Positions 16,962 to 63,183 of a DNA stretch of 64,000 bases are shown piece by piece. Made by a program: the position numbers and the translations under genes. The DNA comes from Candidatus Rokuibacteriota bacterium (GTDB lineage Bacteria; Methylomirabilota; Methylomirabilia; Rokubacteriales; CSP1-6), in contig JACPIQ010000095.1 in NCBI GenBank assembly GCA_016188005.1, positions 13,066-77,065 of the forward strand. The letters are read 5' to 3'. Each line of letters starts with the position of its first letter. Position 1 is the first letter of the stretch. Under the pieces are notes generated by a model. That model made no database searches and was not told where the DNA came from. It was given only the letters and a program-made list of their open reading frames with translations.

Positions 16962-17069
16962 AGGCCCGATCAGCCGGCTACACGGCATCCTCTCACGGGC
17001 GCCAGGGATGATCCTGGCGCCCGTGGTCTTTCTGTTCTTTGCCGGTACAGGTTTGGTAGGCTGTGCCAC

Positions 17070-19052: not shown

Positions 19053-19192
19053 CGGGTCCCGGCCGAGTCTCCCGCCCGGCAGCCCAGCGTGCGCCCCGCG
19101 GCAAGGCGTAAGAAGGGTCGACACCCTCTGTTCTGACGACCTCTGGCCGGCATGGAGCAACCCGTGGAAAACATTGAGGCCCGGCACGAGCA

Positions 19193-19287
19193 AGTCGGGA
19201 AAGCTTACAGCCCCGCCCCGCGGCGGTGCCACGAAGGAGTGAAGATCTTGTATTTGAATGCGTTTCTTTAAGTGGCACGCCGGCTGC
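19193..19287 (+). promoter_or_regulatory. sigma54 promoter with upstream 17-bp box (PEP-CTERM gene 2)
   Basis: TGGCACGCCGGCTGC at 19273-19287. AGTCGGGAAAGCTTACA at 19193-19209. Inverted copy CGTAAGAAGGGTCGACA at 19107-19123. Confidence 0.8.
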
Positions 19288-19388
19288 AGTGCTTGCGCAC
19301 CAGCTGAATTGGAACGCTCCAACTAACTAGTGCGCCGGATGGTTTGGGCGGGCAGGCCGGACCCAGTCGAACTCGAAAGGAGCAGAGA

Positions 19389-20261
19389 ATGCGACGTGCC
19401 ACTCTCGGGGCAGTTCTGGCGACAACAGTTCTGACCGGGCTCTTCTGGTTCAGCCCGGCGTCAGCCGGAAACATCTGGTTGACAGGCCATGACGCGGATT
19501 TCCACTGCGCGTTCGGTGCTCAGTGCAATCACTTCGGCATCGCGCTAGACTTCGCGCGGCAGGATGCGCCGGACAAGACCAAGCCGCTCCTCTTCCTGGA
19601 CTCGGGGGGCGAGGTCGCCAGCGCAGCGGGATCGGCTGGCGCCAGGGCGAGGAACACCGTCGAAGGCGCAGGCTCTCCGTTCCCATTCGTCGTGGTTGAC
19701 CCCTCGACGCCCGCCTTCGCGGCCTTGGCGCTGACGACCGCGTCGTTCAGCGCCATCGTGATCGCGTCGGACTCAACCTGCGGCGGTTGCGACAACAACG
19801 CCGCGGACATCGCGGCGATCAACGCCAGGACGGCTGACATCACCGACTTCTTCAATGCCGGAGGCGGCTTGGTGTACTTCGCCGGGGCCGCCAACAGGGA
19901 CACCTACTACGACTCGGTGCCGATCCCCGCAGCGGCGGTTGCCGTGTCTCCGCCCTTCAGCCTGACGGCCGACGGGGTTGCGCTCGGCCTGCTGGATCCT
20001 GCGGACACCGACTGCTGCGCCACCCACAACAGCTTCTCGCTTCCTGGGGCCGGCAGTGCGCTCAAGGTGGCCGAGCTCGACTCGCTGGGCTTTGCTGAGA
20101 CCCTGTTCGCCGGCGACGTGACGATCGGCGGCGGCGGCTTCGAGCCCGGCTGCGGCACTGCAACGACTCCGCCCTGCTCAGTGCCTTCTCCCGCTGCGCT
20201 GCTGCTGCTTGGCCCGGCGATCGGCGCCTTTGGATACTGGGAATGGAGGCGCCGCAAGTAA
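19389..20261 (+). CDS. PEP-CTERM-like protein 2 (VPSP variant)
   Basis: Signal peptide, C-terminal VPSPAALLLLGPAIGAFGYWEWRRRK. AAGGAG upstream. Confidence 0.85.
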   Translation: MRRATLGAVLATTVLTGLFWFSPASAGNIWLTGHDADFHCAFGAQCNHFGIALDFARQDAPDKTKPLLFLDSGGEVASAAGSAGARARNTVEGAGSPFPFVVVDPSTPAFAALALTTASFSAIVIASDSTCGGCDNNAADIAAINARTADITDFFNAGGGLVYFAGAANRDTYYDSVPIPAAAVAVSPPFSLTADGVALGLLDPADTDCCATHNSFSLPGAGSALKVAELDSLGFAETLFAGDVTIGGGGFEPGCGTATTPPCSVPSPAALLLLGPAIGAFGYWEWRRRK

Positions 20262-20306
20262 GACGCCTTAGTCGTCAGGGCTGACGATCCGGATGCCGGA
20301 GCGCCT

Positions 20307-20336
20307 GAGCGCCGCGGGGTAACCCCCGCGGCGCTC
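20307..20336. terminator. 13-bp perfect GC hairpin after PEP-CTERM gene 2
   Basis: GAGCGCCGCGGGG-TAAC-CCCCGCGGCGCTC. No U-tract, so a terminator role is uncertain. Confidence 0.45.
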
Positions 20337-20741
20337 GCCCTGTCTGCCTGCTCGGCTCTGGCCTACGTCAACCTCCTGCCGGCCTCCTCCGGACCTCCTT
20401 CCAGGCGCCCAGACGCCGCCTTCCTCTGCAACCGTCGAGTGAGGCTCGGTCCTTGTCGGGCTTGCCCTGAGCGCCCCATAATCGCCCGCGACATCTCTCC
20501 CAGCGCCGTCACCCGGCCGAACCCGAGCAACGAAGCGCACTTGGCCGGAAGTTGGATCTCCGAAGCCTGAGGCGGAGCTGTCGGACCGGTTTACATCAGG
20601 CCGGGGCCTCAACTCAGATGCCGCGCCCGGGAATGAGTCAAACGGGTCAGGGAAGGTAGAGCCGGGGGCCCAGGACGCCGCCCGAGCGGTAGAGATGCCT
20701 GGCGATGAGCCCGTCGGGGATTACCCGAATCGGGCCGGACG

Positions 20742-20834
20742 CGGCACCCAGGTTTACAGCTGCAAAGGGCGTCATGCCTTCCCCCAGGCCAAACGGTTGA
20801 TGCGTCAGGCAATTATCTTCGGCACGATTTCTGC
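20742..20834 (+). promoter_or_regulatory. sigma54 promoter with upstream box and IHF-like site (PEP-CTERM gene 3)
   Basis: CGGCACGATTTCTGC at 20820-20834. CGGCACCCAGGTTTACA at 20742-20758. Distal TGTCGGACCGGTTTACA at 20579-20595. IHF-like CATCAACCGTTTG on the minus strand at 20790-20802. Confidence 0.78.
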
Positions 20835-20896
20835 TAGTGAAGCTTTGCACGAGAGTTCATTGCGAGTGCCCTATTAGTGGGCCAGAGGAGACAACC

Positions 20897-21988
20897 ATGA
20901 TTCGGAAGGCCGGAGCGTTGTGGCTATGCGTGGGGCTGGCTATGGTTCTCGTGGGCGGGTGGGCACCGCTCGCGGGCGCGGGAGGAGTGGTCACCAACGG
21001 CACCGTGACTCTTGGGATCAACGACCATGGGGCGTTGAACTTCGCTGGTACCGGGCTGATCTTCAACGCGACCGGCAACGACAGCACGTTCCCGGGTTGC
21101 ACCTGCGAAGGCTGGGGCGCGGGGATCGTGAGTTCCGGCATCTCGGGATATCAGAACACCGCCTTCGGGGGACCGGTCAACCTGTCTCTGGTGAGCTTCG
21201 TCTCGACCGCCAGCACGGCCACGTCGGTCGTGAACATTAACGACCCGTCAGGTGGCCCGGCGCTGCAGGTCAGCCAGGCCTACCATCCGATCGCCGGTAC
21301 GCCGAACCTGTACCAGGTCGATGTCGCGATCACGAACCTGACCGGCGCCCCTCTCGCCGCCGGAGACCTCGTCTACCGGCGGGTGATGGACTGGGACATC
21401 GAGCCGACGCCGTTCAGTGAATTCGTCACCATCCAGGGCGTGCCAGCGCTGCTGGGCGTCGCCAATGGCAACAACGTCCGGCGCACGGGCAATGACGGTT
21501 TCGACACCGCGAATCCGCTCGCCACGGTGTCCGGCGGTATGATTGGCGGCGGACCGGGGTGCGCGTCCGGCGTTCTCGCCCTGAACAGCAACTTCACCGA
21601 CTGCGGTCCTGCTGACCATGGCTCGGTCTGGGATTTCGAGTTCGAGGCGCTCGCAGCCGGGGCGACCCGTAGCTTCGCCATCTTCTACGGCGCGGCGGCG
21701 ACCGAGGCAGGGGCCGACCTCGCCCGTTCGATGGTCGACGGCGATCCCACGGACGTCGAGATCGGCCTGTTCTCGTACGGTCAGTGCAACAGCGGGTCCA
21801 ATGCCTCCTGCAGCGAGATCACGGGCACGCCCAACACCTTCATCTTCGGCTTCGGTGCAGCGGGCGGCATCCTGCTTCCGCCTCCGCCTCCGCCCACCCC
21901 GGGCGTGCCCGAACCCGCCTCGCTGCTTCTGCTCGGCGCGGGGCTGGTCGCCGCGGCGGCCCTGAAGCGGGCGTATCGCAGGAAGTAG
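20897..21988 (+). CDS. PEP-CTERM sorting-domain protein 3
   Basis: Signal peptide, beta-rich body (YRRVMDWDIEPT), poly-Pro linker, VPEPASLLLLGAGLVAAAALKRAYRRK. GAGGAG upstream. Confidence 0.92.
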   Translation: MIRKAGALWLCVGLAMVLVGGWAPLAGAGGVVTNGTVTLGINDHGALNFAGTGLIFNATGNDSTFPGCTCEGWGAGIVSSGISGYQNTAFGGPVNLSLVSFVSTASTATSVVNINDPSGGPALQVSQAYHPIAGTPNLYQVDVAITNLTGAPLAAGDLVYRRVMDWDIEPTPFSEFVTIQGVPALLGVANGNNVRRTGNDGFDTANPLATVSGGMIGGGPGCASGVLALNSNFTDCGPADHGSVWDFEFEALAAGATRSFAIFYGAAATEAGADLARSMVDGDPTDVEIGLFSYGQCNSGSNASCSEITGTPNTFIFGFGAAGGILLPPPPPPTPGVPEPASLLLLGAGLVAAAALKRAYRRK

Positions 21989-22060
21989 ACGCGCCAGACA
22001 CCTAGTTGCAACGCGGGGCCCTCTTCCCGTAACGTGGCAGGAAACGGGAAGGGGGCCCCG

Positions 22061-24112
22061 ATGGTTTCTGCGCTGATCCCGATCCGGTCCGCCGTTCTGC
22101 TGGTCGCTGTGTCGATGTGGCTGGTCGCCACCGTGCCCCACTCGCTCGCCGCGCCCATGGATATCGGCGCGTCGACCGACCCCAACCTCCGCATCGATCC
22201 GCGAGCGCCCGACAGGCCCGGCGCTGCGCCGTCCCCGAAGCTCGCCGCGGCGCTCCAGGCTTACAAGGGCGGCGATTTCGACAAGGCCCTGTCCCTGGCG
22301 CGAGAGCATGTCAAGGAGCAGCCGCGCTCGGCCGTGGGCCACGAGCTGCGCGGCGCTGCGGCCATGGCCAAGGGACAGCTCAAGGAGGCCGAGGAGGCGC
22401 TCAACGAGGCGCTCCGGATCGAGCCGAAGCGGGCCGCGACCCTGGCCATGCTCGGGGAGCTGTACTACCGGCGCAACGATCCGAGGAGAGCCGAGGACCA
22501 GCTTCGACAGGCGCTGACGATCGACTCGCGGTTGCCAGGCGGTCACCGCTTCCTCGCCCTTGTGCTGTTTCGGCAAGGCAAGGTCGGGCCGGCTGTGGAG
22601 GCCGCGCGAGAGGCGGTGCGGGTCTCGGGCGACGCCGACCCGGAGGCCCATTACGTCCTCGCGTCGATGTACTTCGAGCTGGGCCGGCCGGCCGAGGCCG
22701 AGCCGTTGCTGGCCCGCGCGCTGGCCGGACGCCCCGACTCGGCCCAGACGAACACGCTTCAGGGCTTGGTCAAGCTCCAGCTCCGGAAGATCGACGAGGC
22801 GGCGACATTCCTGCAGAAGGCGGCGGCCAAGGACCCGAGCTCGCCGTGGGTACGCCTGGGCATGGCCCTCGTCCAGCGCTCGCGGGGCAACATGGCGCAG
22901 GCCCGCAGCGACCTCGAGAAGCTGGCCAAGGACCAGCCGGCCTGGCCGCTCGTCAATCTCCAGCTCGGCGAGACGCTGCTGGCCGACAAGCAGGTGGAGG
23001 CGGCCCTGCGTGCCTTCGACGCCGCCGAGAAAGCCAGCCCGAACCGTTCACTGACCCAGTTTCAGGCGGCGCGCGTGCTGCTGGCCTACGGCGAGGCCGA
23101 CCGCGCCATCGCGCGGGCCCGGGGCGCCCTCGAGTCCAAGGAGGTGGCACCCGCGGCGCGCGTCGTGATCGCGCAAGCCTATCTGGCCAAGAAGAGCCCC
23201 GACCTGGCCGAGAAGGAGCTCCAGGTGGCGCTGGCGGCGGCGCCGAAGGACCCCGCGCCCGCGATGCAGCTCGGGAGCTTCTATGTCGGGCAGAAGAAGT
23301 ACGCCGAGGGGCTCCGCCAGTTCGAGAAGGCGGCGAGCCTGCGCCCTGAGGCCTTCGAGCCCCTGGCCGCCCAAGCCGAGACGCGGCTCCTCCTCAAGCA
23401 GGGGGACGAGGCAGTGAAGGTGGCCGAGCGGATGGTCGAGACGCAGAAGGAGGCGCCCGATGCCTACGTCTTCCTCGGTGGCATCCAGGAGCGCGCCGGG
23501 CGCTTCCAGGACGCCGCCAGGAGCTACCAGAAGGCCATGGAGAAGCAGCCGAACCACCTGGGCGCGGCGCTCTCGCTGGCGGCGCTGCACGAGCACGAGA
23601 AGCGCCCCCAGGCGGCCGCCAAGCTGCTCCGCGAGGCCGCCGACGGCCACCCGCAGGCGGCGCTGCCGCTCGTCCGCTTGGGGATCCTCAAGGACCGCGA
23701 GGGCGACAGGCCCGCAGCCGTTGCGGCGTACCGGGCGGCGCTCCAGCGAGACGGTCGCAACGCGGTGGCGCTGAACAACCTCGCCGACGCCCTCGCGAAG
23801 GACCCGAAGACGCGCGACGAGGCGCTGGGGCTCGCCGAGCGCGCCTATCAGGCCGCGCCCCGGAGCCCGGTGATCGCCGATACGCTCGGCTGGCTCCTCT
23901 TCCAGAAGGGGACCCTCGATCGGGCCGAGCAGCTCATCGCCCAGGCGGCTACCGCCCTGCCGGGAAACTCCGAGATCCGCTACCACATGGGTCTGGTCTA
24001 CGCCAAGCGCGGGAAGAAGGTCGAGGCCCGCCGGGAACTGGAGGAGGCACTCAAGTCCCCGTCCTTCCCCGAGGCGGCGGCGGCGCGGAAGGCGCTCGAT
24101 CAGCTCAGGTAG
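22061..24112 (+). CDS. PrsT-like multi-TPR exported protein (paralogue of 17070-19052)
   Basis: Signal peptide, TPR units, near-identical C-terminal block RDEAL.LAERA...APRSP.IADTLGWLL.QKG..AARKAL..L. Confidence 0.85.
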   Translation: MVSALIPIRSAVLLVAVSMWLVATVPHSLAAPMDIGASTDPNLRIDPRAPDRPGAAPSPKLAAALQAYKGGDFDKALSLAREHVKEQPRSAVGHELRGAAAMAKGQLKEAEEALNEALRIEPKRAATLAMLGELYYRRNDPRRAEDQLRQALTIDSRLPGGHRFLALVLFRQGKVGPAVEAAREAVRVSGDADPEAHYVLASMYFELGRPAEAEPLLARALAGRPDSAQTNTLQGLVKLQLRKIDEAATFLQKAAAKDPSSPWVRLGMALVQRSRGNMAQARSDLEKLAKDQPAWPLVNLQLGETLLADKQVEAALRAFDAAEKASPNRSLTQFQAARVLLAYGEADRAIARARGALESKEVAPAARVVIAQAYLAKKSPDLAEKELQVALAAAPKDPAPAMQLGSFYVGQKKYAEGLRQFEKAASLRPEAFEPLAAQAETRLLLKQGDEAVKVAERMVETQKEAPDAYVFLGGIQERAGRFQDAARSYQKAMEKQPNHLGAALSLAALHEHEKRPQAAAKLLREAADGHPQAALPLVRLGILKDREGDRPAAVAAYRAALQRDGRNAVALNNLADALAKDPKTRDEALGLAERAYQAAPRSPVIADTLGWLLFQKGTLDRAEQLIAQAATALPGNSEIRYHMGLVYAKRGKKVEARRELEEALKSPSFPEAAAARKALDQLR

Positions 24113-35575: not shown

Positions 35576-35723
35576 CCATGCCCAGCATGCCTGGCGGCAT
35601 GCTGGCCGTGGGCCAGAAGGTGGGCGCCACCCGTTTTCACTTCCCCGTCACCATGTCCAACATGCCTGGCGGCATGTTGGCCGTGGGCGAGAGGGTCGGG
35701 GCCACCCGTTTCTCACTTTCCCC
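35576..35723. repeat. Tandem pair of about 72-nt hairpin-containing repeats
   Basis: Copies at 35576-35646 and 35651-35723. Stems CCAGCATGCC/GGCATGCTGG and CCAACATGCC/GGCATGTTGG, loop TGGC. Confidence 0.85.
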
Positions 35724-36570
35724 ACCACGCGAGGATGGCCTCTCGGAGGAGCCAGGAGGCGGTGATGGCGGTCCGGCCGGAGGGGTCCCAGGCCTGGGCC
35801 ACCTCCACCATATCGGTGCCGACCAGGTGGCAGCCCTCCAGGAGCCGGACGATGTCTACCAGTTCCGAGGCACGGAGCCCGCAGGGCTCCGGCGAGCCCG
35901 TGCCAGGCGCCTCCGAGGGATCGAGCACGTCCACGTCGATGGTCACGTAAAGCGGGTGGGGCCGGAGCTCGGGCAGCAGGCGCCGCACGGCTTCCACCGG
36001 AGCCAGGGCATGCGCCGGATAGAGGTGTGCGGCGCCGCGGCGGTACTCCGAGCGGTCGCCCGTGCGCATGCCGACCTGATAGACACGCTCGGGAGGCATC
36101 ACCTCCATCACCCGGGCCATCGCCGAGGCATAGCAGTAACGCTCGCCGAGGAACTCCTCGCGCAGGTCCGGGTGGGCGTCGAGCTGGAGGAGGCGGAGAT
36201 CCGGGATGGCTGGCGCCAGCGCCTCGATGACAGGCAGCGTGGCGGTGTGGTCTCCGCCGAGCATGATGGCCGCGAGGTTAGGCCGCCAGAAGCGCCGGAT
36301 CTCCTCCCGCGCCCGGGCGAGCCGCTCCCGCGGCGGGCCCTCGCCGAGCTCGCAGTCGCCGAGGTCGCAGATCGCGAGATCCTCGAGGTCACGGTCCAGG
36401 GTGGGGGAGTAGGTCTCGATGGAGTCGGAGAGCGCCCGGAGGTCCCGGGGACCGCGGTGGGCGCCCAGGCGCAGGTTCACGGTGCCCTCGAAGGGGATGC
36501 CGAAGAGGACGGCCCGGGCCTCCGGGAGGGAGGCCCGGCAAGCGATGAAGCGGGGGTTCGCCGGGATCAA
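35713..36570 (-). CDS. speB: Agmatinase-family ureohydrolase
   Basis: GIPFEGT, LGGDHTAT, LDAHPDLR, TIDVDVLDPSEAPGTGSPEPCG. TTG start directly after the pdaD stop. Confidence 0.93.
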   Translation of the reverse strand: MIPANPRFIACRASLPEARAVLFGIPFEGTVNLRLGAHRGPRDLRALSDSIETYSPTLDRDLEDLAICDLGDCELGEGPPRERLARAREEIRRFWRPNLAAIMLGGDHTATLPVIEALAPAIPDLRLLQLDAHPDLREEFLGERYCYASAMARVMEVMPPERVYQVGMRTGDRSEYRRGAAHLYPAHALAPVEAVRRLLPELRPHPLYVTIDVDVLDPSEAPGTGSPEPCGLRASELVDIVRLLEGCHLVGTDMVEVAQAWDPSGRTAITASWLLREAILAWWGK

Positions 36571-37053
36571 CTACAGCAGATCGTCGTCGGACAGGAGCGT
36601 CACGGCGGCCAGGGCGCAGCCGGTGCGCTCCACCCGGTGCTCCACGGCGGCGACCTTCATCTGGGCGATCCGCCATCCGCGGGCCCGGAAGGCCTCCTGG
36701 AGCATCTGCACGATCATCGCCTCGGCTTCCTCCCGGGTGGCCTTGTCGTGGAACTCCATGATGACCCCGTTCTTGGCGGGATCGTCGGGGAGCGCCCAAC
36801 CGACGGCCGCCGCCACCACCTCGCCCGGCACCTCGCTGGTCACGGCGGCGTACGCCGTGGGAACGATGGCGCCCGGCTTGATCCGGGGCAAGGAGACGAC
36901 CTCGGCGGCGGGAGGGAAGATGCTCGAGACCTTCACCAGGTTGACGTTGCCGATGCCCGCCGCCAGGAGGGCGTTGTCGAAGGCGTTGAGGGGAGTCGAG
37001 CCTTCCGCGTTGCCAGCCGTCGCGGCCACCTTCGTCACCGGCTTCCAGCCCAT
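36571..37053 (-). CDS. pdaD: Pyruvoyl-dependent arginine decarboxylase
   Basis: AFDNALLAAGIGNVNLVKVSSIFPP (Ser-Ser cleavage site), GVIME. Confidence 0.92.
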   Translation of the reverse strand: MGWKPVTKVAATAGNAEGSTPLNAFDNALLAAGIGNVNLVKVSSIFPPAAEVVSLPRIKPGAIVPTAYAAVTSEVPGEVVAAAVGWALPDDPAKNGVIMEFHDKATREEAEAMIVQMLQEAFRARGWRIAQMKVAAVEHRVERTGCALAAVTLLSDDDLL

Positions 37054-37251
37054 CCGCTCCCTCCTCTCGCCCCACGCGAGGTCGCGCTTCCGGGGCCCCT
37101 CACACGAGGGGAATTTTGATTGCTCATGTTAGCGGCTCGACTCGGGAACGCAAGCAAAAACTTGCCCCGCGCAGCGCTCAGCCGCCGCGCGCTGGGCCCG
37201 CGGCGCGGCGCCCGGAGAGCTCGCCGAGGGGCGCGAAAGCCAATTTTTTTC

Positions 37252-37280
37252 TTGCAATGCCTTTTCGCTGGTCCTACATT
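37252..37280 (+). promoter_or_regulatory. sigma70-type promoter of speD-speE
   Basis: TTGCAA-N17-TACATT preceded by an AATTTTTTT UP-like tract. Confidence 0.65.
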
Positions 37281-37341
37281 GAGCGAAATTCTGCCGCAAG
37301 TTTTTTTCGGCGGAGAGCTACAGGAAGGGAGGAGAGAACGC

Positions 37342-37734
37342 GTGCACGCCTTGGGGCGACACCTGCTGCTCGAGCTGTTCGACTGCGACGCAGAGGCCAT
37401 CAACAGCCTTGAAGTCGTGAAGACGGCGATGGTGGAGGCCGCCCGGCGAGCCCAGGCCACCATCGTGGACGTCGTCTTTCACGAGTTCAACCCGTTCGGC
37501 ATCAGCGGAGTCGTCGTCATCGCCGAGTCGCATCTGGCGATCCACACGTGGCCGGAGTACCGCTACGCGGCGGTGGACGTGTTCTCCTGCGGCGACGTGC
37601 TGCAGCCTCAGGTCGCGGCCGACTACCTCGTGGAGCAGTTCGGCGCCGCGCGGGCGTCGGTCGTTGAGGTCCAGCGGGGTGTCTTCCTGCACGCCGGCAT
37701 GCCGATGCCGCACAAGCCCGTCGCCGTCGCCTGA
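37342..37734 (+). CDS. speD: S-adenosylmethionine decarboxylase proenzyme (SpeH type)
   Basis: LGRHLLLELFDC, FNPFGISGVVVIAESHLAIHTWPEY, DVFSCG. GGAG upstream of the GTG. Confidence 0.95.
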   Translation: MHALGRHLLLELFDCDAEAINSLEVVKTAMVEAARRAQATIVDVVFHEFNPFGISGVVVIAESHLAIHTWPEYRYAAVDVFSCGDVLQPQVAADYLVEQFGAARASVVEVQRGVFLHAGMPMPHKPVAVA

Positions 37735-38654
37735 TGGCGGGTCCCCCGCAGTACAAGTGGTTCTTCGAGACCACTACGCCCGTCGAAGGCCACATGCACG
37801 CCATCTCCCGGACCATCACCAGCCTCCAGACCAAGTTCCAGTTCATGGAGATCATGGAGACCCATTCCTACGGCAAGGTCCTGGTCCTGGACGGGCGGAT
37901 CCAGTCGAGCCAGGCCGACGAGTTCATCTACCACGAGGTCCTGGTCCAGCCCGGCCTCCTGGCCCATCCCCACCCCCGCCGGGCCATGGTCATCGGCGGC
38001 GGAGAGGGGGCAACGGTCAGGGAGGTTCTCCGCCACCGCTCCATCACCGACTGCCTCATGGTGGATATCGACGCCGAGGTGGTCGCCGAGTGTCGCAAGC
38101 ACCTGCCCGAGATGCACCGGGGCGCCTTCGATGACCGGCGCACCCGCCTGCTCCACGAGGACGCCCGGGCGTATCTCGAGAAGACCTCCGACCGCTTCGA
38201 CCTGATCGTGATCGACCTGGTGGAGCCCCTGGAGGAGGGGCCGGCCTGCCTGCTCTTCACCAGGGAGTTCTACGGCCTGGTGCGGGACCGGCTCACCGAC
38301 GAGGGCGTGATGACCATGCAGGCCGGGATGACCAAGGTCAACGAGCTGTTCTTCTTCGGCGCCGTCAACCGCACGCTCCGAGAGGTCTTCCCGGTGGTGG
38401 CACCCTATCAGGGTTTCATCTCCTGCTTCGGGACGCCGTGGGGTTTCGTCCTGGCCTCCAAGGGCGCCGACCCCCGTCGCCAGACGCCGGAGGAGGTCGA
38501 CCGCCTTCTCGCCCTCCGCCTGGACCCGACGGCCCTCGGGTACTGGAACGGAGCTGCTCACCTGCACTCCTTCAATCTCCCCAAGTTCATCACCCGGGCG
38601 ATCGAGACCAACGACCGCATCATCACCGACGCCAATCCCCTCATCGTCTCCTAG
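37734..38654 (+). CDS. speE: Polyamine aminopropyltransferase
   Basis: GKVLVLDGRIQS, EFIYHE, IGGGEGAT, VDID, DARAYL, MQAG. Confidence 0.95.
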   Translation: MAGPPQYKWFFETTTPVEGHMHAISRTITSLQTKFQFMEIMETHSYGKVLVLDGRIQSSQADEFIYHEVLVQPGLLAHPHPRRAMVIGGGEGATVREVLRHRSITDCLMVDIDAEVVAECRKHLPEMHRGAFDDRRTRLLHEDARAYLEKTSDRFDLIVIDLVEPLEEGPACLLFTREFYGLVRDRLTDEGVMTMQAGMTKVNELFFFGAVNRTLREVFPVVAPYQGFISCFGTPWGFVLASKGADPRRQTPEEVDRLLALRLDPTALGYWNGAAHLHSFNLPKFITRAIETNDRIITDANPLIVS

Positions 38655-54631: not shown

Positions 54632-54749
54632 ACCGCGGGACCCGCACGCCTCGCGGGTCGCCCTTCGCGAGAGCCCCGGGCCAGCCTGGGCGGGAGGAGC
54701 CTCGCTCCCGCCCCAGGGTGCGGAGGATTCGTGGTAGGGTGAGCCTGTC

Positions 54750-56144
54750 ATGGGGTTCTCGATGTGCCGGGCCGCCGTGGTCCTTCTCGTCGTGCTCGCA
54801 TGCGCAGGCCTCGACGCCCCGCCAGCCGCAGCCCTCGAGGAGCGTGAGCGCCTCCTCCTGGTGGGCGAGCGCGCCTTCCAGGACAGGCTCCACGCCCTCT
54901 CCCGCCAGGCGCTGGAGCGTTTCCTCGAGCGCTACCCCTCTGACGCCCGCGCGCCCGAGGCCACGCTGCTCCTGGGCAAGGCGAGGCTGGCCCTCGGTGC
55001 CCTCGACGCGGCGCTGGACGCCTTCCGTCGGGCCCAGGGCTTCTCCCCGCCGCCGGGCCAGCCCGAGGAGGCCCGCTTCTGGGAAGGAGAAACGCTCTTC
55101 CGACTGCGGCGCTTCGAGGCCGCGCGCGCCGTCTACGACCGGCTCCTGGCCGACAACGCCGCCTCCCCCCTGGCTCCCGACGCGCTGTACGGCCTCGGGT
55201 GGGCGCAGCTCGAGCTCAAGCAGCGCGAGGCGGCCATCACCGCCTTCCGGCAGCTCATCGAGGCGTTCCCCGAACATTCCAGCGTTCCTTCGGCGACCGT
55301 CTATCTCGCGCGGACGCTCGTGGAGGCCAAGCGCTTCGAGGAGGCGGCCGGGCTCCTGAGCTCCTTCCCCGAGCGCCATCCCAACCACGCGCTCGTGCCC
55401 GATGCCCGCTACCTGCTGGGCTATGCGCGGGTCTCCGGGGGCCACACCTCGCAGGGGCTGGCCGACCTCCGCGCCTTCATCGCCGCCCACCCGGGGCACG
55501 AGCTGGCCGTGCAGGCCCGGCGCATGGTCGTGGCCGCCGTCGTGCGCGGGGGGCGGAAGGACGAGCTGGCCCAGGAGTACAGCAGCCTCATGGCGCAGTC
55601 CCCGCGCACGGCCGAGGCCCTGTACGACGCGGGCCTCGTGGCCTCTCAGCTCGGGCGCCCGCGCGATGCCGAGAGCGCCTGGGCGGCATTGCGGACCGAG
55701 TTCCCCAAGCACGCCCTGGCTGCCCGCGCCTCCCTCGATCTGTCGCAGAGCGCCTTCGGGCGCAGCGCCTTCAAGGACGCGCTGGCGCTGGCGCGGGCCG
55801 CGGCGCGGAGCGAGGAGGGGCCGCTCCGGGCGCAGGCCTTCCTGCTCGCCGGCGAGAGCGAGCTCAAGCTCAAGCATTACCCGCAGGCGCACCAGGCCTT
55901 CCAGTCGGCGGTGGAGTTGGCGGGCGAGGATGCGGTCGTTCGCTTCCGCGCGCTGGCCGGAAGCGGGCTGGCCCTCGAGGAGCAGGGGCAGTGGCAGCAG
56001 GCCGCGCGCCACTACGACCAGGTCGCCGCGGGCAGTCCCGACAAGGAACTCCAGCGCTGGGCGAAGGGGCGCCGCGCCGCGCTCGCCCCGAAGCTCAAGC
56101 CCGCCGCCAAGAAGCCGGCGGCCGGAAAGGCACGGAAGCCATGA
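54750..56144 (+). CDS. Exported TPR-repeat protein (BamD/CpoB-like repeats)
   Basis: Signal peptide, repeated F...YP....A..A..LLG units. Confidence 0.8.
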   Translation: MGFSMCRAAVVLLVVLACAGLDAPPAAALEERERLLLVGERAFQDRLHALSRQALERFLERYPSDARAPEATLLLGKARLALGALDAALDAFRRAQGFSPPPGQPEEARFWEGETLFRLRRFEAARAVYDRLLADNAASPLAPDALYGLGWAQLELKQREAAITAFRQLIEAFPEHSSVPSATVYLARTLVEAKRFEEAAGLLSSFPERHPNHALVPDARYLLGYARVSGGHTSQGLADLRAFIAAHPGHELAVQARRMVVAAVVRGGRKDELAQEYSSLMAQSPRTAEALYDAGLVASQLGRPRDAESAWAALRTEFPKHALAARASLDLSQSAFGRSAFKDALALARAAARSEEGPLRAQAFLLAGESELKLKHYPQAHQAFQSAVELAGEDAVVRFRALAGSGLALEEQGQWQQAARHYDQVAAGSPDKELQRWAKGRRAALAPKLKPAAKKPAAGKARKP

Positions 56145-59143
56145 GCTGCAGGATCGGGAGCAAGGGTGCGGCGGCCGCCGCGCTGGCACTCGTCGCGGCG
56201 CTGGCCTCGGGCGCGCGCGCGGCCGATCCGCCGCTGCTCCCGGCCCCCGAGCTCGGGGTCCTCCTCCGGCCGGTGTCACCGGCGCTGGAGAAACCGTCCG
56301 TGCCCCCGCCCGCGCTGCCGCTGCCCGAGGGGCCCCGCCCCTTCCCCCAGCTGCCGCCGCCGCGGATCGCCTCCGATCCAGCGCTCAGGCCCACGGCCCC
56401 CCTCGCCTCGCCCCGCCTGCTCGCGTGCAACCCCCTCGGCAGCGTCTTCGGCGTGGCCTCGGAGCTGGTCGAGTGCGGCAAGGCCCGCTACCAGAAGGGC
56501 GAGCTCGAGCAGGCCCAGGTGGAGCTGTCGATCGCGGTCCAGAAGGGGACCGACCGGTCAACGCTGCGCGAGGCGCGCTACTGGCTGGCCGAGACCCGCC
56601 TCCGGCTGAAGCGCGGGGAGGCCGTCGAGGTCTACCTCTCCCTTGTCGCCCAGGACGACCCTCGGGATGTGCTGGGTCTGTTCGCGACCCACTCGCTCGC
56701 GTGGGTGATGCTCGAGCGCGGCGAGGCCTCCCGCGCCCTCCCCACCTTCGAGGGCCTCCTCAGGGGCAGCGTGCCGCCCGAGATCATCCCCTGGGCGCGG
56801 CACGGCCACGCGCTGGCGCTCTACGCGCTCGGGCGCCACACCGAGGCGCGGGACGAGTGGATGACTCTCCTCAACCGGAGCGTGCCCGCGCCGCTCGCCG
56901 CCGAGGGCGCCTTCTGGCTCGGCGAGACCCTCGGCCGGCTGGGCGACGCGCGCGGTGCCGCGGCCCGGCTCCAGGTCTTCACCGCGGCGGGGCCGCAGCT
57001 CCTGATCGAGACGGGCCTCCTGCGGCTGGGCTGGTGGCGCCGCGCCGCCGGCCAGCCCCTCGAGGCCGTGAAGATCTACCGCGGCCTCCTCACCGCCTAC
57101 CCGCAGATGACGGAGCGGCTCTGGGCGCGCGCCGGGCTCGTGCAGGCCCTCCTCGACCTCGACGACGGGGCCGGCGCCGCCGCCGAGGCGAGCCAGCTCG
57201 ACGCTGCCGACCGGAAGGGGACGCTGGCCCTGCCGGCTGCGCTCCTCGTCGGCCGCTGGGCCGCCGAGCGGCAGCGGCCGGACGAGGCGCAGGCCGTTCT
57301 GCAGGAGCTCCTCGGTCGGAGCCTCGAGCCCGACGTCCGCGCCTACGTGCTGGTGCTCAGCGGGGAGGTCGCGCGCCGCGCGGGGCAACTCGCCGAGGCG
57401 CGCGAGCGCTTCGAAGCCGCGCGCCAGGTCGCGGCGCCGCCAGCCCTCTCCGCCCACGCGGGACTGAGACTCGCCCAGATGGATCTCGACGGGCGAGAGT
57501 TTGGCCGGGCCGCGACCCAGGCCCAGGCGCTCCTGAAGGAGCCGCTCCCGCCGGCGCTACGCGCCGGTGCCCTCATCGTGGAGGGGGAGTCGGCGTACTG
57601 GCTCCGGCAGTACGAGCGCGCGGCGGAGACCTACGCCCGCCTCCTCGCGGACTTCTCCGGCGAGCCGCTCGCTTCCCCCGCCCTCCTGGCGCTTGGCTGG
57701 GCCGAGTATCGCCGCGGCCGGTTCGAAGCAGCCCGCGAGAGCTGGACGCGCTTCGCGGGGCAGGCGGGAGCCGCTGACGCGCGGGCGCCGGGGGCGCTCC
57801 TCCTGGCGGCCGAGCTCAGAGCCCAGGCGGGAGACGAGTCGGGCGCGCTCCAGATGCTCGACGGGCTCCTCGCGCGCTTCCCGGAGAGCGAGCACGCGGC
57901 CGCCGCCGCGCTCAATCGCGCGATCCTCACGGTGCGCGCCGGGCGCGCGCCGGACGGGCTTCGCGAGCTGAGCGAGCTCCTGGACCGCACCCCCCACTCC
58001 CCGTATCGAGGGCGCATGCGTCTGGCGCGCGGGACGGCACTGGTCGCGGCGGGGCGCCCCTCGGAGGCGGCGGCCGACTTCCGGGCAGCGCTCGCCGAGG
58101 GCGAGGATGTCGCACGGCTCGGGCTCGGCGTGGTCGCTCTGGAGCGCAAGCAGTGGGGCGAGGCCGCGCGCGAGCTGGCGGCCGCGCGGGATGTCGGGTC
58201 GGGCTCCGTCGCGGCCACCGCTGAGTATGGCCTGGCCGCCGTGGCCTTCGGTGAGGGCAAGAAGGCCGAGTTCGAGCGGCTCGCCGCCCCGCTGCTCGCC
58301 GGGCCCCCGTCACCGGCCACGACGCCCCACCTGCTCCATGCGCTGGCCTTCCTCGCCGGCGAGGAGAAGAAGTGGGTAGAGGCCCGGACGCTCGCGGGGA
58401 GGCTTGCGAGGGAGTTCCCCGCTCACCCGGCAACGTCGGCGGCCCTGGCCGGGCTCGCCGAGGCCGCGGCCCGCGACGGCCAGTGGCCGGTGGCGCGCGA
58501 GGCCTACCAGATGCTGGCCGCCCGCGATCCGTCGCACCTGGCTCACCAGGCGGGGCGGCTGGACTTCGCCGAGGCGCTGCTTCGCACGGGCGCGGCGCAC
58601 GAGGCCCGGCGCCGGCTCGAGGGATTCGTCACGCTTCATGCGGGCGATCCGCGCATGGCGCGCGCGCTGCTGCTCCTCGCCCAGGCCCAGGAGGCTGTGG
58701 GCGATCGCGCCGCTGCCGTGGCGACCTACGGCCGGCTTCGCCAGGAGCATCCCTCCGCCCCGGGCGCCGAGCAGGTGACGCTGTCTCACGGACGGTTGCT
58801 GCAGGCCGAGGGCCGATGGGACGAGGCCCGCCCGCTCCTGCTCAAGGGGCTCGACGCCCCGGATCCAGCCGGGGCGGCCGAGGCCGGCTTCAGGCTCGGG
58901 GAGGGATATCGCGCGGCCAGCCAGCACCAGGACGCCGTCGAGGCGTTCATGACGGCCGCCTACCTCGCGCCCGACTCACCCTGGGCGCGACGCGCCCTCG
59001 CGGGGGCGGGCCAGTCCTTCGCCGCCCTCAAGCAGCGGGAGTCGGCCGCCATCGTCTACCGGAAGCTCCAGAGCGCCAGCGGCGTGGAGCCGGAGCTGGC
59101 GGAGGCTGCGCGCAGGGGACTGAAGGCGCTCGGCGTCAACTGA
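56141..59143 (+). CDS. Large exported TPR-repeat protein (1000 aa)
   Basis: ATG 56141 overlaps the previous stop. Signal peptide, Pro-rich linker, continuous TPR-like helical repeats. Confidence 0.8.
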   Translation: MSCRIGSKGAAAAALALVAALASGARAADPPLLPAPELGVLLRPVSPALEKPSVPPPALPLPEGPRPFPQLPPPRIASDPALRPTAPLASPRLLACNPLGSVFGVASELVECGKARYQKGELEQAQVELSIAVQKGTDRSTLREARYWLAETRLRLKRGEAVEVYLSLVAQDDPRDVLGLFATHSLAWVMLERGEASRALPTFEGLLRGSVPPEIIPWARHGHALALYALGRHTEARDEWMTLLNRSVPAPLAAEGAFWLGETLGRLGDARGAAARLQVFTAAGPQLLIETGLLRLGWWRRAAGQPLEAVKIYRGLLTAYPQMTERLWARAGLVQALLDLDDGAGAAAEASQLDAADRKGTLALPAALLVGRWAAERQRPDEAQAVLQELLGRSLEPDVRAYVLVLSGEVARRAGQLAEARERFEAARQVAAPPALSAHAGLRLAQMDLDGREFGRAATQAQALLKEPLPPALRAGALIVEGESAYWLRQYERAAETYARLLADFSGEPLASPALLALGWAEYRRGRFEAARESWTRFAGQAGAADARAPGALLLAAELRAQAGDESGALQMLDGLLARFPESEHAAAAALNRAILTVRAGRAPDGLRELSELLDRTPHSPYRGRMRLARGTALVAAGRPSEAAADFRAALAEGEDVARLGLGVVALERKQWGEAARELAAARDVGSGSVAATAEYGLAAVAFGEGKKAEFERLAAPLLAGPPSPATTPHLLHALAFLAGEEKKWVEARTLAGRLAREFPAHPATSAALAGLAEAAARDGQWPVAREAYQMLAARDPSHLAHQAGRLDFAEALLRTGAAHEARRRLEGFVTLHAGDPRMARALLLLAQAQEAVGDRAAAVATYGRLRQEHPSAPGAEQVTLSHGRLLQAEGRWDEARPLLLKGLDAPDPAGAAEAGFRLGEGYRAASQHQDAVEAFMTAAYLAPDSPWARRALAGAGQSFAALKQRESAAIVYRKLQSASGVEPELAEAARRGLKALGVN

Positions 59144-59154
59144 GCGCGAGGCTC

Positions 59155-59685
59155 TCAGGCGAGCGCGGCGAGAACATCCTCGATCGAGGGGTGGTCGCCG
59201 GGGAAGCGGTCGCGCCACTCGAAGCGCACCGTCGCCCCGGGCCCCAGCACGAAGGTGCCGCCCTGCTGCAGGATGTGCCCGCGGGCAGGCCCCTGCCTGA
59301 AGCCGGACAGCAGCGCGGCGAGAAGGCGCGGCACGGCGCGGGGATCGAAGGTCCTGGCCTTGCCGTAGGCGAGGCCTGCCGTCTTGAAGGTGAGGAGCGA
59401 GGGGTCCACCAGGAGCGGCCCCGCGTAGCCCGTCGCCGCGCGGAAGCCCAGGATCGCCTCGGGCGGGGCGCTACCCACCACCACGAGCCCGCCGCCCAGC
59501 GAGTCGATCAGCGGCAGCGCCGTCTTGAGGCCAGCCAGCTGCTGGCGGCAGAAGAGTCAGCCGAAGTGGCGGACGAAGCCGAGGACGGCCGGGCGGTCCT
59601 TCCAGAACGTTCCCAGGGCCACGGGGGCGCGCTTCTCGTCGAGCGTGGTCAGCGTCGCCAGGCGGGTTGCCACGGTGTCGCTCAT
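59155..59685 (-). CDS. AhpC/TSA-like (PRXL2/SelU-like) selenoprotein, UGA at 59557-59559 read as Sec (176 aa)
   Basis: VLGFVRHFG-UGA-LFCRQQ places UGA at the first Cys of the family RHxxCxxC motif. The frame continues to QQGGTFVLGPG..DHP. Hairpin downstream of the UGA. Confidence 0.85.
59530..59546 (-). promoter_or_regulatory. Putative bacterial SECIS hairpin
   Basis: GCCAGC-AGCUG-GCUGGC at +11 to +27 after the UGA, with G in the second loop position. Confidence 0.55.
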
Positions 59686-59751
59686 GGCCTCGATCCTATC
59701 TGATATCATGGGCCGCCGACAGACGGACGGCGCGGCGCGTCCCCGGACGAG

Positions 59752-61575
59752 GTGACGATGCGAGGGTACGGCGGGCGGATCCTCTTCGTGGACGCGACGA
59801 GCGGCCGGAGCCGGGTGGAGGCCGTTTCCGAGGAGATGGCGCGGAGCCTCGTGGGGGGGAACGGCTTCGCCGCACGCCTCCTCCTCGACGGCGTGCCGCC
59901 CGGCGTGGATGCCTACGACCCTGCCAACGCGGTGGTCTTCGCGGTGGGGCCCGTGACGGACACGAGCGTGCCCGGCAACAGCCGGGCCTGCGTCGCCTCC
60001 AAGTCCCCGCTCACCGGCCTCTTCTTCGACTCCACCTTCGGCGGCCGCTTCCCCGCCACCATGAAGCGCACGGGCTTCGACGCTGTCGTCATCACTGGCC
60101 GCGCGGGCGAGCCCGTGTACGTGCGCGTCACCGAGCAGGGCGCCGAGCTGCGGCCAGCGCGCGAGCTCTGGGGGAAGACGACGCGCGAGGCCGTCGCCGC
60201 CATCCAGGCCGCGGAGGGCGGTCAGGCCGACGCCATCGCCATCGGCCCGGCGGGCGAGCGGCTCGTGCGCTTCGCCAGCATGGCGACCTACTGGAAGAAC
60301 CGCGAGGGAGTGGCCGGCCGCGGCGGCATCGCGGCCGTGCTGGGGTCGAAGCACGTCAAGGCGGTGAGCGTGGCGGGCACACGGAAGACGGAGGTCGCCG
60401 ATCCGGCCGGGCTCAAGACGCTCCTCGACGAGCGCCGCGAGCCCCTGGCGACGGGCACCAAGGCGCTGTCCACCTACGGGACGTCCTTCCTCGTGAGGCC
60501 CATCAACGCGCTGGGCGCGCTGGGCGCCTATAACCTCCGCCAGGAGACCTTTGCCGAGGCCGCGGCCATCTCCGGCGAGGAGATGCACGCCCGCTACCAC
60601 GCCCGGGACACCACGTGTCTCAAGTGCTCCGTGGCCTGCGGCAAGCAGTACGAGATCCGCGACGGCGAGCTGCTGGGGATCCGGGCCAAGATGCCCGAGT
60701 ACGAGACCATCTTCGCCCTCGGCTCCATGCTCGGCAATGCGCATCCTGGCTCGCTCGCCCGCGCCAATGACCTCTGTGACCTCCTGGGCCTGGACACGAT
60801 CAGCATGGGCGTGACCCTCGCCTTCGCCGCGGAGGCGCTCGAGCGTGGCTGGCTCACTGCGGCCGAGGTGGGCCTGCCCTTCGGCTGGGGCGACTGGCGC
60901 GGCATGCTGCGTCTGGTGGAGATGACGGCGGTGCGCGAAGGGTTCGGCGACCGGCTGGCCGAGGGCGCCTGGCGACTGGCCGAGAGCGTGCACCCGGAGG
61001 CCACGAAGAGCGTGTACGCGGTCAAGCGCCTCGAGCTGCCGGCCCATTCGGCGCGCGCGCTCAAGGGCATGTCCATCGGGTACGCGACGGCCACCCGCGG
61101 CGGCAGCCACCACGACACGCGCCCCACGCCCCAGTACGCCCAGGGCTTCGATCGCCGCTCCCCCGACGGCAAGTCTGAGTTCGCCGCGCGCAGCCAGCAC
61201 GCCACGGCGCTCGGCGACTCGCTCGTCCTCTGCCGCTTCACCGCCGAGCGCGGCTTCGGCCTCTACGTGGAGGAGCCTTACGCGCGGATGCTGCGCGCCA
61301 TCACGGGCTGGGACGCGGGCGTGGAGGAGCTCGAACGCGTCGGCGAGCGCGTCATCAACCTCGAGCGGCTCTTCAACGTGCGCGAGGGCGTGGGCCGCGC
61401 GGCCGATGTCCTGCCCTGGCGCGTGATGCACGAGCCCATCCCCGATGGCCCCTCGGCCGGCATGCGCTGTCCCCCGGAGGAGCTGTCGGCGATGCTCGAC
61501 CGCTACTACGCCTTCCGCGGCTGGGACGCGGACGGTGTCCCGACGCCGGGGCGCCTCACCGCTCTCGGGCTATAA
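59752..61575 (+). CDS. Aldehyde:ferredoxin oxidoreductase family protein (W/Mo-pterin, 4Fe-4S)
   Basis: SKSPLTG, AIGPAGERLVRFA, AGRGGIAAVLGSK, CLKCSVAC, PEYETI, GLDTISMG, TRGGSH. Confidence 0.93.
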   Translation: MTMRGYGGRILFVDATSGRSRVEAVSEEMARSLVGGNGFAARLLLDGVPPGVDAYDPANAVVFAVGPVTDTSVPGNSRACVASKSPLTGLFFDSTFGGRFPATMKRTGFDAVVITGRAGEPVYVRVTEQGAELRPARELWGKTTREAVAAIQAAEGGQADAIAIGPAGERLVRFASMATYWKNREGVAGRGGIAAVLGSKHVKAVSVAGTRKTEVADPAGLKTLLDERREPLATGTKALSTYGTSFLVRPINALGALGAYNLRQETFAEAAAISGEEMHARYHARDTTCLKCSVACGKQYEIRDGELLGIRAKMPEYETIFALGSMLGNAHPGSLARANDLCDLLGLDTISMGVTLAFAAEALERGWLTAAEVGLPFGWGDWRGMLRLVEMTAVREGFGDRLAEGAWRLAESVHPEATKSVYAVKRLELPAHSARALKGMSIGYATATRGGSHHDTRPTPQYAQGFDRRSPDGKSEFAARSQHATALGDSLVLCRFTAERGFGLYVEEPYARMLRAITGWDAGVEELERVGERVINLERLFNVREGVGRAADVLPWRVMHEPIPDGPSAGMRCPPEELSAMLDRYYAFRGWDADGVPTPGRLTALGL

Positions 61576-61582
61576 TCGTCGC

Positions 61583-61658
61583 AGGCGGGTAGCTCAGCTG
61601 GGAGAGCACGGCCCTTACAAGGCCGGGGTCGCGAGTTCGAGCCTCGCCCCGCCTACCA
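61583..61658 (+). tRNA. tRNA-Val(TAC)
   Basis: Acceptor stem AGGCGGG/CCCGCCT, D-arm AGCTCAGCTGGGAGAGC, anticodon arm CGGCC-CTTACAA-GGCCG, GTTCGAG T-loop, encoded CCA. TATAAT at 61571. Confidence 0.97.
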
Positions 61659-61827
61659 CCTCCATCCGGCCCCCGGTCCGGAGCCTGCGGTCGTGCCCGC
61701 GCGCCCGGGTCCGGGGCTGACGGCGATGACGGCGGCGCCCGGCCGAACGGGATTTCCCTCGGCACCGAGAGGTGCTACCCTGGCGGCATCAGCTGACCGG
61801 CTTGGCGCGGATCGGAAAAGGAGCCCT

Positions 61828-63183
61828 GTGCGTCCACTGGCCTGGTGCTACCGGATGTTGCCCCCCCTGCTCCTCCTGACCCTGGTCCCGGCGCCGCACG
61901 CCGTGGCCGCCCAGACGGCGCGTGAGCTGGCCCGGTCCGTCTTCCCCTCCGTGGTGTCCCTGGTCATGAGCAGCGGCCTGCAAAGCAGCCGATCCGGGGG
62001 CTACCTGATCGTGCGCGAGCCGAGAAGCCTCGGCAGCGGCTTCTTCGTGCGCGAGCCGAGAAGCCTCGGCAGCGGCTTCTTCGTGCGCGAGGACGTGGTG
62101 GCCACCAATGCCCACGTCATCCAGGGCGCCGTCAGCGGCTACGTGAAGTTCATCGGCCAGGAGACGAAGCACGAGATCGTCGGTGTGGTGGGCATCGACA
62201 TCCAGCACGACCTGGCCCTCGTGAAGATCTCCCACATGAAAGCCCGACCCCTCCCGCTGGGTGATCCGGCCCAGGTGGCCGTGGGCGAGCAGATCTACGC
62301 CGTGGGGACTCCCCAGGGGCTCGAGGGGACCTTCTCGCCCGGCCTCGTGAGCGGAATCCGCACGGCGGAGACGGGCACGCTCTACCAGATCAGCGCTCCC
62401 ATCTCGCCGGGTAGCAGCGGCGGTCCCGTCCTCACCCAGGACGGCAAGGTCATCGGCGTGGCCATGGGCGCCCTCAGCGCGGGCCAGAACCTCAACTTCG
62501 CTGTTCCTGTCACCTACCTGTTCTCGCTGCTGGCGCAGCCCCCGCGACTGATCTCGCTCGACAAGGTCCCCAGCGAAAGGCCGGCGTCCCCCCCGAGCCC
62601 CTCGCAGCCGGCCGCCGCCGAGGCTGCCCCGCAAGGGCCTGCCATCGAGACGGTCTTCACGCCGCGGGACCGGGCGGCCGAGGCGCGGGCCGAGTTCGAG
62701 CGCCAGTTCCAGGCCGTCGTCAAGCAGGCCCGCCTGCTCGCCGGTCTCCTCGACCCTGGCACGAGCCGCGAGCAGTGGCGCCCCCCGTTCCAGGATTTCG
62801 AGCGCCGCTACCACCATTTCAGAGCGCGCTACCAAGTCCACCTGGCGGCCACGGCCCGGGAGCGGGAGATCCTGACAAAGCTGCTCAAGGCCTCCGACCT
62901 GCTCCTCGCGGCGGAGGAAACCTGGGCCAAGGAGATCGCCGCCACCACCGAGCTCGAGAACAGCCGGCGCGCCCGCGAGGCGGCCCAGGCACATCACGCC
63001 CGGCGACAGTCGGCCGTCACCCAGGTGGAGCTGGACATCGCCGAGGAGAATCTGTCCAGGGCCAGGCGCAGCCAGGAGCACGCGGCGACGGAGCGGAAGA
63101 AGCAGTGGGCGGTCGCGGCGCCGGCGCTCAAGGCCGTTGAGCCGCTCACCCCGTCGAACGAGCCCGCCGCGCCCTCTCGCTGA
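61828..63183 (+). CDS. Trypsin-like (S1) serine protease with a helical C-terminal extension
   Basis: Catalytic triad motifs ATNAHV, HDLAL, SPGSSGGP. AAAGGAG SD before GTG 61828. Signal-like N-terminus. Confidence 0.88.
   Translation: MRPLAWCYRMLPPLLLLTLVPAPHAVAAQTARELARSVFPSVVSLVMSSGLQSSRSGGYLIVREPRSLGSGFFVREPRSLGSGFFVREDVVATNAHVIQGAVSGYVKFIGQETKHEIVGVVGIDIQHDLALVKISHMKARPLPLGDPAQVAVGEQIYAVGTPQGLEGTFSPGLVSGIRTAETGTLYQISAPISPGSSGGPVLTQDGKVIGVAMGALSAGQNLNFAVPVTYLFSLLAQPPRLISLDKVPSERPASPPSPSQPAAAEAAPQGPAIETVFTPRDRAAEARAEFERQFQAVVKQARLLAGLLDPGTSREQWRPPFQDFERRYHHFRARYQVHLAATAREREILTKLLKASDLLLAAEETWAKEIAATTELENSRRAREAAQAHHARRQSAVTQVELDIAEENLSRARRSQEHAATERKKQWAVAAPALKAVEPLTPSNEPAAPSR
62009..62091 (+). 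repeat. In-frame 36-nt tandem duplication within the protease gene
   Basis: TCGTGCGCGAGCCGAGAAGCCTCGGCAGCGGCTTCT twice, plus TCGTGCGCGAG, giving VREPRSLGSGFF x2. Confidence 0.95.

Follow-up and report, generated by a model that had tools for sequence, protein, structure and literature searches.

The window, i.e. the whole 64,000-nucleotide stretch of contig JACPIQ010000095.1 (assembly GCA_016188005.1, Candidatus Rokuibacteriota bacterium) analyzed here, contains on its minus strand at 59685..59155 what is very probably a single gene for a thioredoxin-like redox protein (redoxin), in which an in-frame UGA at codon 43 is decoded as a predicted selenocysteine (Sec). This reading is drawn from comparison of related sequences. 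We hold with slightly greater confidence still that the redoxin family encodes Sec at codon 43, and with less that Sec is inserted efficiently in the window's own copy; the lower confidence in that copy is due to a private variant in the loop of its putative selenocysteine insertion sequence (SECIS).

The frame has 176 codons with one internal stop, a TGA, and closes with a TGA at 59157..59155. The internal TGA is preceded by 42 sense codons ending in VRHFG and followed by LFCRQQ and 127 further codons, so that its context reads V-R-H-F-G-U-L-F-C-R-Q-Q (with U for Sec). In the list of open reading frames (ORFs) the gene is split: the N-terminal 42 codons are joined to a spurious long ORF (59557..61431), and what is listed of the C-terminal part is a 109-aa ORF (59155..59484). 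Public entries for related metagenome-assembled genomes (MAGs), those at NCBI included, hold only a ~127-aa "peroxiredoxin-like family protein" from which the active site is missing. An earlier note on this DNA, made from its letters and ORF list, had recognized that the gene is cut in two by the ORF track, and the list and the translation confirm this. Its codon counts are right for the 42 codons to VRHFG, the TGA and LFCRQQ, although the "130 more" that it gave are really 127. It had also described a 6-bp hairpin with an AGCUG loop lying 11–27 nt downstream of the TGA, which is present as described, and had proposed a PRXL2/SelU-like redoxin as the product; the latter is borne out by the Pfam match and by the sequence and structural matches to PRXL2B (the structural match being that of a Cys-containing orthologue) given below.

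The gene was compared with 23 loci from species-representative genomes, seven contigs of the nearest relatives, and 71 metagenome contigs recovered by an exact-pattern scan. The relatives found by a protein search are of two classes: full-length proteins of ~180 aa with the motif H-L-G-C-I-F-C, and many fragments of ~127 aa that start just past the CxxC region; one of these fragments begins MFCRQQ, corresponding to the codon right after the would-be Sec. At the codon-43 column the 23 genome loci have either TGA (15 loci) or TGC or TGT (eight loci). All seven nearest relatives (76–89% identical) have TGA and are likewise split into ORFs of 42 and 127 codons. The 71 metagenome contigs also have TGA; 49 of them are complete on either side, and in each of these the frame stays open over at least 44 codons ahead of the TGA and over 133–152 codons past it. 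UGA forms are present at 94 loci in all, the window included, and eight orthologues from genomes, together with 35 protein clusters, have Cys at the UGA column of the CxxC motif. The ratio of nonsynonymous to synonymous substitution rates (dN/dS, Nei-Gojobori) between the window and its relatives is 0.21–0.58 over the N-terminal 42 codons and 0.32–0.71 past the TGA, so that purifying selection acts on the two pieces to a similar degree.

The hairpin extends from +11 to +27 after the UGA and has a 6-bp stem, a 5-nt loop and a predicted energy of −11.1 kcal/mol (Table 1). The consensus of the UGA forms from +12 to +26 is C-C-A-G-C / A-G-G-U-N / G-C-U-G-G (the loop of the window excepted), the five core pairs are formed in all 19 distinct UGA-form sequences, and a homologue from Desulfatibacillum has a compensatory C-G to G-C change in the stem. 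The A-U pair of the stem is broken in seven of the eight Cys forms, and the mean hairpin energy is −9.6 kcal/mol in UGA forms versus −6.5 kcal/mol in Cys forms. The U of this pair is the third base of an Ala codon, GCU, which is used in 16 of 16 UGA forms and one of eight Cys forms (Fisher p = 2e-5), as well as in all seven near relatives; GCU accounts for 3.2% of the Ala codons in the window genes and for 2.6% of the other Ala codons in the redoxin genes compared. These comparisons support a predicted role for the hairpin as a SECIS, which a rare synonymous codon maintains in the UGA forms and which has decayed in the Cys forms.

The SECIS of Escherichia coli fdhF is a hairpin within the ORF, 11 nt past the UGA, with a GGU / GpU loop element and a bulged U. 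The redoxin hairpin similarly lies within the ORF and starts at +11, and the family consensus loop AGGUN contains both GGU and GpU. It differs in its short stem (5–6 bp) without a bulged U and, in the window, in the loop AGCUG, which is without GpU. Published rules for bacterial SECIS elements (bSECIS; PMC13188914) specify a loop of 3–9 nt, a stem of 4–16 bp, a G in the first two loop positions, a distance of 16–37 nt between UGA and loop, and a minimum free energy of −7.5 kcal/mol or lower. The hairpin of the window conforms to all of these, with 5 nt, 6 bp, a G in the second loop position, 16 nt and −11.1 kcal/mol. The G[G|U] pattern that is frequent in bSECIS elements is present in all relatives and absent from the window, where C follows the G.

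Family searches with the window protein, in which U was replaced by C, reveal a match to Pfam AhpC-TSA_2 (PF13911; 4.5e-15, 56.5 bits against a gathering cutoff of 27). Pfam AhpC-TSA (PF00578) scores 24.3 bits, below its cutoff of 26, and the Redoxin model is also narrowly below threshold. The PxxxT/SxxC active site of typical peroxiredoxins is not present, as the H-F-G-U motif has no Thr or Ser at −3. The sole NCBIfam match is to NF040769 ("SelL-related redox protein"), which covers the whole length with 105 bits, below the cutoff of 120. The orthologues score 102–124 bits on this model and only one of them (L001) passes, so that the clade straddles the model boundary; one Cys orthologue is named SelL-related redox protein by NCBI. 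The best sequence match in the PDB is human prostamide/prostaglandin F synthase PRXL2B (9us9; E = 5e-11), whose R-R-F-G-C-V-V-C is aligned on the R-H-F-G-U-L-F-C of the window protein. A structure model was made for a proxy, a Cys orthologue (P0004) 57% identical to the window protein, with a predicted local distance difference test (pLDDT) score of 82 and a predicted template modelling (pTM) score of 0.80. In this model a strand (residues 33–38) is followed by Cys43 and then by a helix (44–55), which is the classical position of CxxC in the thioredoxin fold. Foldseek searches with the same model place PRXL2B first (template modelling (TM) scores of 0.76–0.82), followed by Bcp/PrxQ peroxiredoxins and ResA. 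The sequence and model matches support identification of the predicted product as a thioredoxin-fold oxidoreductase of the PRX-like2 type (AhpC-TSA_2 / SELENOU-PRXL2). Arg130, in an invariant motif, is a candidate active-site arginine, by analogy with the Arg that is conserved among enzymes with the peroxiredoxin fold.

Sec forms of this superfamily have already been described (eukaryotic SELENOU, SelL, and bacterial UxxC and UxxS proteins), and the window gene is a further predicted member. SELENOU comprises PRXL2A, PRXL2B and PRXL2C, with Sec at this position in fishes and birds and repeated conversion to Cys (bioRxiv 10.1101/2025.05.29.656587). The window protein shares with SELENOU/PRXL2 the Pfam family, the fold and the place of the redox motif (R-x-F-G-C-x-x-C in PRXL2B), as well as the occurrence of Sec for the first Cys in some members and the recurring Sec-to-Cys conversions. 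However, the identity is only ~24%, and the window gene is bacterial with a predicted SECIS of the bacterial type inside the ORF, whereas the eukaryotic SECIS is in the 3′-untranslated region. It differs from SelL (SELENOL) in having one Sec, the UxxU diselenide motif being that of SelL. Among bacteria, "Prx-like" UxxC proteins are known from marine metagenomes (PMC2398784), and a UxxS selenoprotein of the cd02970 "AhpC/TSA family" is tabulated in PMC13188914. In the published predicted bacterial PRX-like2 selenoprotein, Sec is also the first residue of the redox motif, and the Desulfatibacillum homologue, with U-V-F-A, resembles it; the clade of the window differs, in a comparison made by description only, in having the full U-x-x-C together with a conserved neighborhood of genes for an aldehyde:ferredoxin oxidoreductase (AOR) and tetratricopeptide repeat (TPR) proteins, found in genomes of the Methylomirabilota type.

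By analogy with the pathway as described for bacteria, in which SelA, SelB, SelC and SelD take part (PMC13188914), SelB-GTP carrying Sec-tRNA(Sec) would bind the hairpin while the ribosome is on the UGA, and release factor 2 would compete with the delivery of Sec. Sec43 would be placed where the first long helix of the folded protein begins, and its selenolate could attack an oxidized substrate, either a peroxide or of the disulfide type. Cys46 would then resolve the intermediate as a selenenylsulfide, a thioredoxin-type reductant would recycle the enzyme, and Arg130 of the GFRQ motif would probably help to activate the active site. The chemistry proposed for Sec43 and Cys46 is modeled on that of CxxC and UxxC thioredoxin-fold proteins and on PRXL2B.

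Three other explanations dispense with Sec. If the TGA were a plain nonsense mutation in a dead gene, the gene would be split by gene callers and annotated publicly as a ~127-aa C-terminal piece only, as it is; but 94 loci share this TGA, their frames are open and selection is purifying on either side of it, the linked RNA hairpin is kept by a rare synonymous codon, and the relatives are without random stops or frameshifts, apart from a local frameshift in one locus (L011). A pseudogene is thus very improbable, and the view of the earlier note that the gene is not one agrees with the 94 loci, the Cys orthologues, a dN/dS below 1 on both sides and the undisrupted frame. The alignment of homologues that it suggested pairs UGA with Cys at one column; the concern that the TGA might be unique to this strain does not hold, as the TGA is widespread and what is private to the strain is one base of the SECIS loop. 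The gene could also give two products, a 42-residue peptide and a separately initiated C-terminal protein of ~127 residues, since start-like codons lie soon after the TGA and are used by the gene callers. We give this very little credence, as the two products would divide between them the CxxC active site of what is one thioredoxin-fold domain, the chosen starts vary among relatives (the codon after the TGA, the Val/Leu codon, or a later GTG), and the Cys orthologues are continuous. Low-level read-through of UGA occurs in bacteria, and the codon might be read without selenium, by near-cognate insertion of Trp or Cys or under a reassigned code. However, TGA is the stop of 20 of the 38 Pfam-supported genes of the window, including the redoxin gene itself at its own end; because it serves there as an ordinary stop, genome-wide reassignment is excluded, and the combination of a SECIS-type hairpin with the alignment of Sec and Cys is a signature of Sec decoding that makes selenium-free read-through most unlikely.

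Several observations weigh against Sec decoding of codon 43, in part for the window copy alone. No selA, selB, selD or tRNA-Sec gene was found in the window (Rfam and ARAGORN, with Pfam on ~40 window genes) or in 734 kb of related loci (ARAGORN, and tblastn with E. coli SelA, SelB and SelD), a negative that covers this DNA only and says nothing on whole genomes; Rfam and ARAGORN return only a tRNA-Val in the window. The assumption of the earlier note that the organism uses Sec accordingly finds no Sec machinery in the window to lean on; what stands in its favor, indirectly, is the constrained hairpin and the reported selenoprotein richness of the lineage. A Methylomirabilota MAG has 63 predicted selenoprotein genes according to PMC13188914, where Deng et al. 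2026 is cited for it, and Sec-type group 4 hydrogenases occur in Methylomirabilota, in genomes enriched for selABCD (PMC13582414). The local fold of the window sequence taken singly, in DNA of 71.6% GC, has a z of −0.22 against dinucleotide shuffles, and since this is no better than the shuffles, the significance of the hairpin comes only from the comparison with relatives. Covariation is thin as well, with four of the six pairs invariant and one compensatory event at each of the other two, because the remaining stem bases are dictated by the encoded residues Q-Q-V-A-G. Lastly, the loop reads AGGUN in 22 of 22 other fetched UGA forms and AGCUG in the window only, a variant found in none of the public metagenome contigs, 71 of which have the consensus. 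In a 48-nt context the window sequence is predicted to favor a competing hairpin, GCCAG-CAG-CUGGC (0.64), over the canonical one (0.36), whereas the same pairing prediction for the closest relative (L024) gives 0.12 for the competing hairpin and 0.55 for the canonical one. SelB contacts the loop GpU in the E. coli and Moorella systems, and the G-to-C change at 59538 may be tolerated, may weaken Sec insertion relative to that in relatives, or may be an assembly error. It could accordingly be argued that the family is a true selenoprotein family of which the window copy is impaired, with Sec insertion weak or lost and the allele heading to a pseudogene, or that the base is a misreading of GUG; the private loop, the competing hairpin and a somewhat raised C-terminal dN/dS against the closest relatives (0.57–0.66) all point that way. 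We nevertheless think it unlikely: all six stem pairs and the G in the second loop position are preserved and the hairpin thus still conforms to the bSECIS rules, the gene is otherwise without defect, the change from Val to Leu is conservative, and dN/dS is noisy at such short distances.

The Sec and Cys forms are interspersed in phylogenies of the locus. Neighbor-joining of the redoxin sequences, after masking of the motif columns, groups the Cys forms as a monophyletic set in none of 300 bootstraps, and parsimony gives at least three Sec/Cys switches in 297 of the 300, with Sec as the root state. A tree of the adjacent AOR, an independent marker from the same loci, has the same nesting, with at least five switches and Cys monophyly in none of 200 bootstraps. 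Residue 41, two positions before the UGA codon (59563..59565), is Phe in 94 of 94 UGA forms and Leu in every Cys form, both the eight from genomes and the 35 protein clusters. Residue 132 (59290..59292), two past Arg130, is never Gly in the Cys forms and is Gly in most presumed Sec forms; a strict coupling of Gly132 to Sec was considered and is weakened by 17 presumed Sec-form clusters with Ala or Val. Coupled substitutions may be responsible, or small-scale recombination or transfer of a Cys-type allele. We suggest tentatively, as a possibility about which we are more doubtful than confident, that one orthologous, syntenic locus in Methylomirabilota-type bacteria has undergone at least three to five Sec/Cys switches, each with a Phe (Sec) / Leu (Cys) change at −2 and loss of Gly132.

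Table 1. Features of the redoxin gene of the window, its predicted Sec codon and SECIS-type hairpin, and the adjacent genes.
Feature	Coordinates	Strand	Details
Redoxin coding sequence	59155..59685	-	ATG 59685..59683; stop TGA 59157..59155; PF13911; gapless end-to-end alignment with full-length Cys orthologues
Predicted Sec codon 43 (UGA), first residue of U-x-x-C	59557..59559	-	TGA or a Cys codon at the same column in relatives
Cys46 codon (TGC), predicted resolving Cys of U-x-x-C	59548..59550	-	Kept in all Methylomirabilota-type homologues; aligned with the second Cys of the PRXL2B CxxC
Hairpin of bacterial SECIS type within the coding sequence	59530..59546	-	Arms GCCAGC (59546..59541) and GCUGGC (59535..59530); loop AGCUG (59540..59536)
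Loop position +19	59538	-	C in window (CUG, Leu50), G elsewhere (GUN, Val); G to C, GpU lost
Ala51 codon (GCU)	59533..59535	-	Third base pairs with A(+14) of the stem; synonymous site under RNA-level constraint
Arg130 codon, invariant G-F-R-Q motif, candidate active-site Arg	59296..59298	-	R130 and Q131 invariant in alignments
AOR family gene, divergent neighbor	59752..61575	+	Pfam AFOR_N, AFOR_C
Large TPR-repeat protein gene, convergent neighbor	56144..59143	+	Pfam TPR families; synteny
tRNA-Val, just beyond the AOR gene	61583..61658		

On one side the redoxin gene is divergent from the AOR gene, which is for a tungsten-type enzyme, and on the other it is convergent with two large TPR genes (54738..59143); the order AOR / redoxin / TPR / TPR is found in every related locus that is long enough, with the exception of the Desulfatibacillum locus (L021). 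Because of this shared synteny and an AOR amino acid identity of ~82%, the related loci are considered orthologous and of one lineage; most of the syntenic loci are labelled Methylomirabilota or Rokubacteria, and the window most likely belongs to this lineage too. A distribution of the redoxin gene across phyla was considered and rejected, as the oddly labelled contigs are fully syntenic with Rokubacteria contigs at the same ~82% AOR identity. The labels concerned are Acidoferrum, Deferrimicrobiaceae, Dormiibacterota, Limnocylindria, Verrucomicrobiia and the archaeon Nitrosotalea (among L001, L002, L003, L012, L015 and L020), on contigs fully syntenic with those of Rokubacteria/Methylomirabilota, and they are probably binning errors in public MAGs. 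In L011 (4494..5018), a UGA-form orthologue, a local frameshift destroys the invariant QQGGTFVLGPG motif, which reads GRSGTAGRHLRARTGD; either the copy is decaying or the frameshift is an error of assembly.

The homologue in L021, from the cultured Desulfatibacillum alkenivorans DSM 16219, is 40% identical to the window protein and has both the UGA and the hairpin; its motif, U-V-F-A, is without the resolving Cys. Directly downstream of it (L021 10628..11167) is a gene for a YeeE/YedE (Sulf_transp) half-protein with a TGA at 11027..11029 in the context L-A-G-G-U-P-S-G-H-G. By its sequence this gene matches the known GUxSG family of predicted selenoproteins, and the locus would then have two adjacent Sec genes.

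The remainder of the window contains housekeeping genes, including those for PolA with an intein, CoaE, RNase J, FtsK, LolA, RecA, RecX, AlaRS, MurG, Ddl and RarA, and a polyamine cluster. No second TGA-interrupted gene was found in the window (by Pfam on ~40 genes and inspection of gaps), adjacent ORFs in the same frame being separate complete genes. The DNA polymerase I (family A) gene (2..2584, plus strand) runs off the window start, and its intein (LAGLIDADG_3, Hint_2 and Intein_splicing) is at residues ~170–603 of the partial ORF. Three PEP-CTERM-type secreted proteins (15957..16961, 19308..20261 and 20801..21988) alternate with two TPR proteins of ~700 aa in the region 15957..24112. The polyamine cluster (35713..38654, both strands) encodes a member of the agmatinase/arginase family, a pyruvoyl-dependent arginine decarboxylase, an S-adenosylmethionine decarboxylase-like ORF (37120..37734) and a spermidine synthase. 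The product of a trypsin-like protease gene (61693..63183, plus strand) has, encoded at ~61990..62060, an 11-residue segment perfectly repeated in tandem (REPRSLGSGFFV twice) immediately ahead of its protease domain.

Gene finders routinely split selenoprotein genes of such a known class, and the gene is mainly of value as an annotation correction, about a hundred relatives being likewise mis-annotated. It adds a UxxC redoxin to the predicted selenoproteome of a phylum of soil and groundwater whose richness in selenoproteins has been recognized only lately, and the private mutation in its SECIS loop offers a test of SelB loop specificity beyond model organisms. The orthologous Sec/Cys series, with its Phe/Leu change and SECIS decay, is a clean system for the gain and loss of Sec codons. 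If the coupling of these residues is structural or mechanistic, with a pocket tuned for Se or S, the clade would be a replicated natural experiment on Sec/Cys exchange in an enzyme with the thioredoxin fold; should the −2 codon act instead on UGA recoding at the level of the mRNA or the ribosome, it would be a new context determinant of bacterial Sec insertion.

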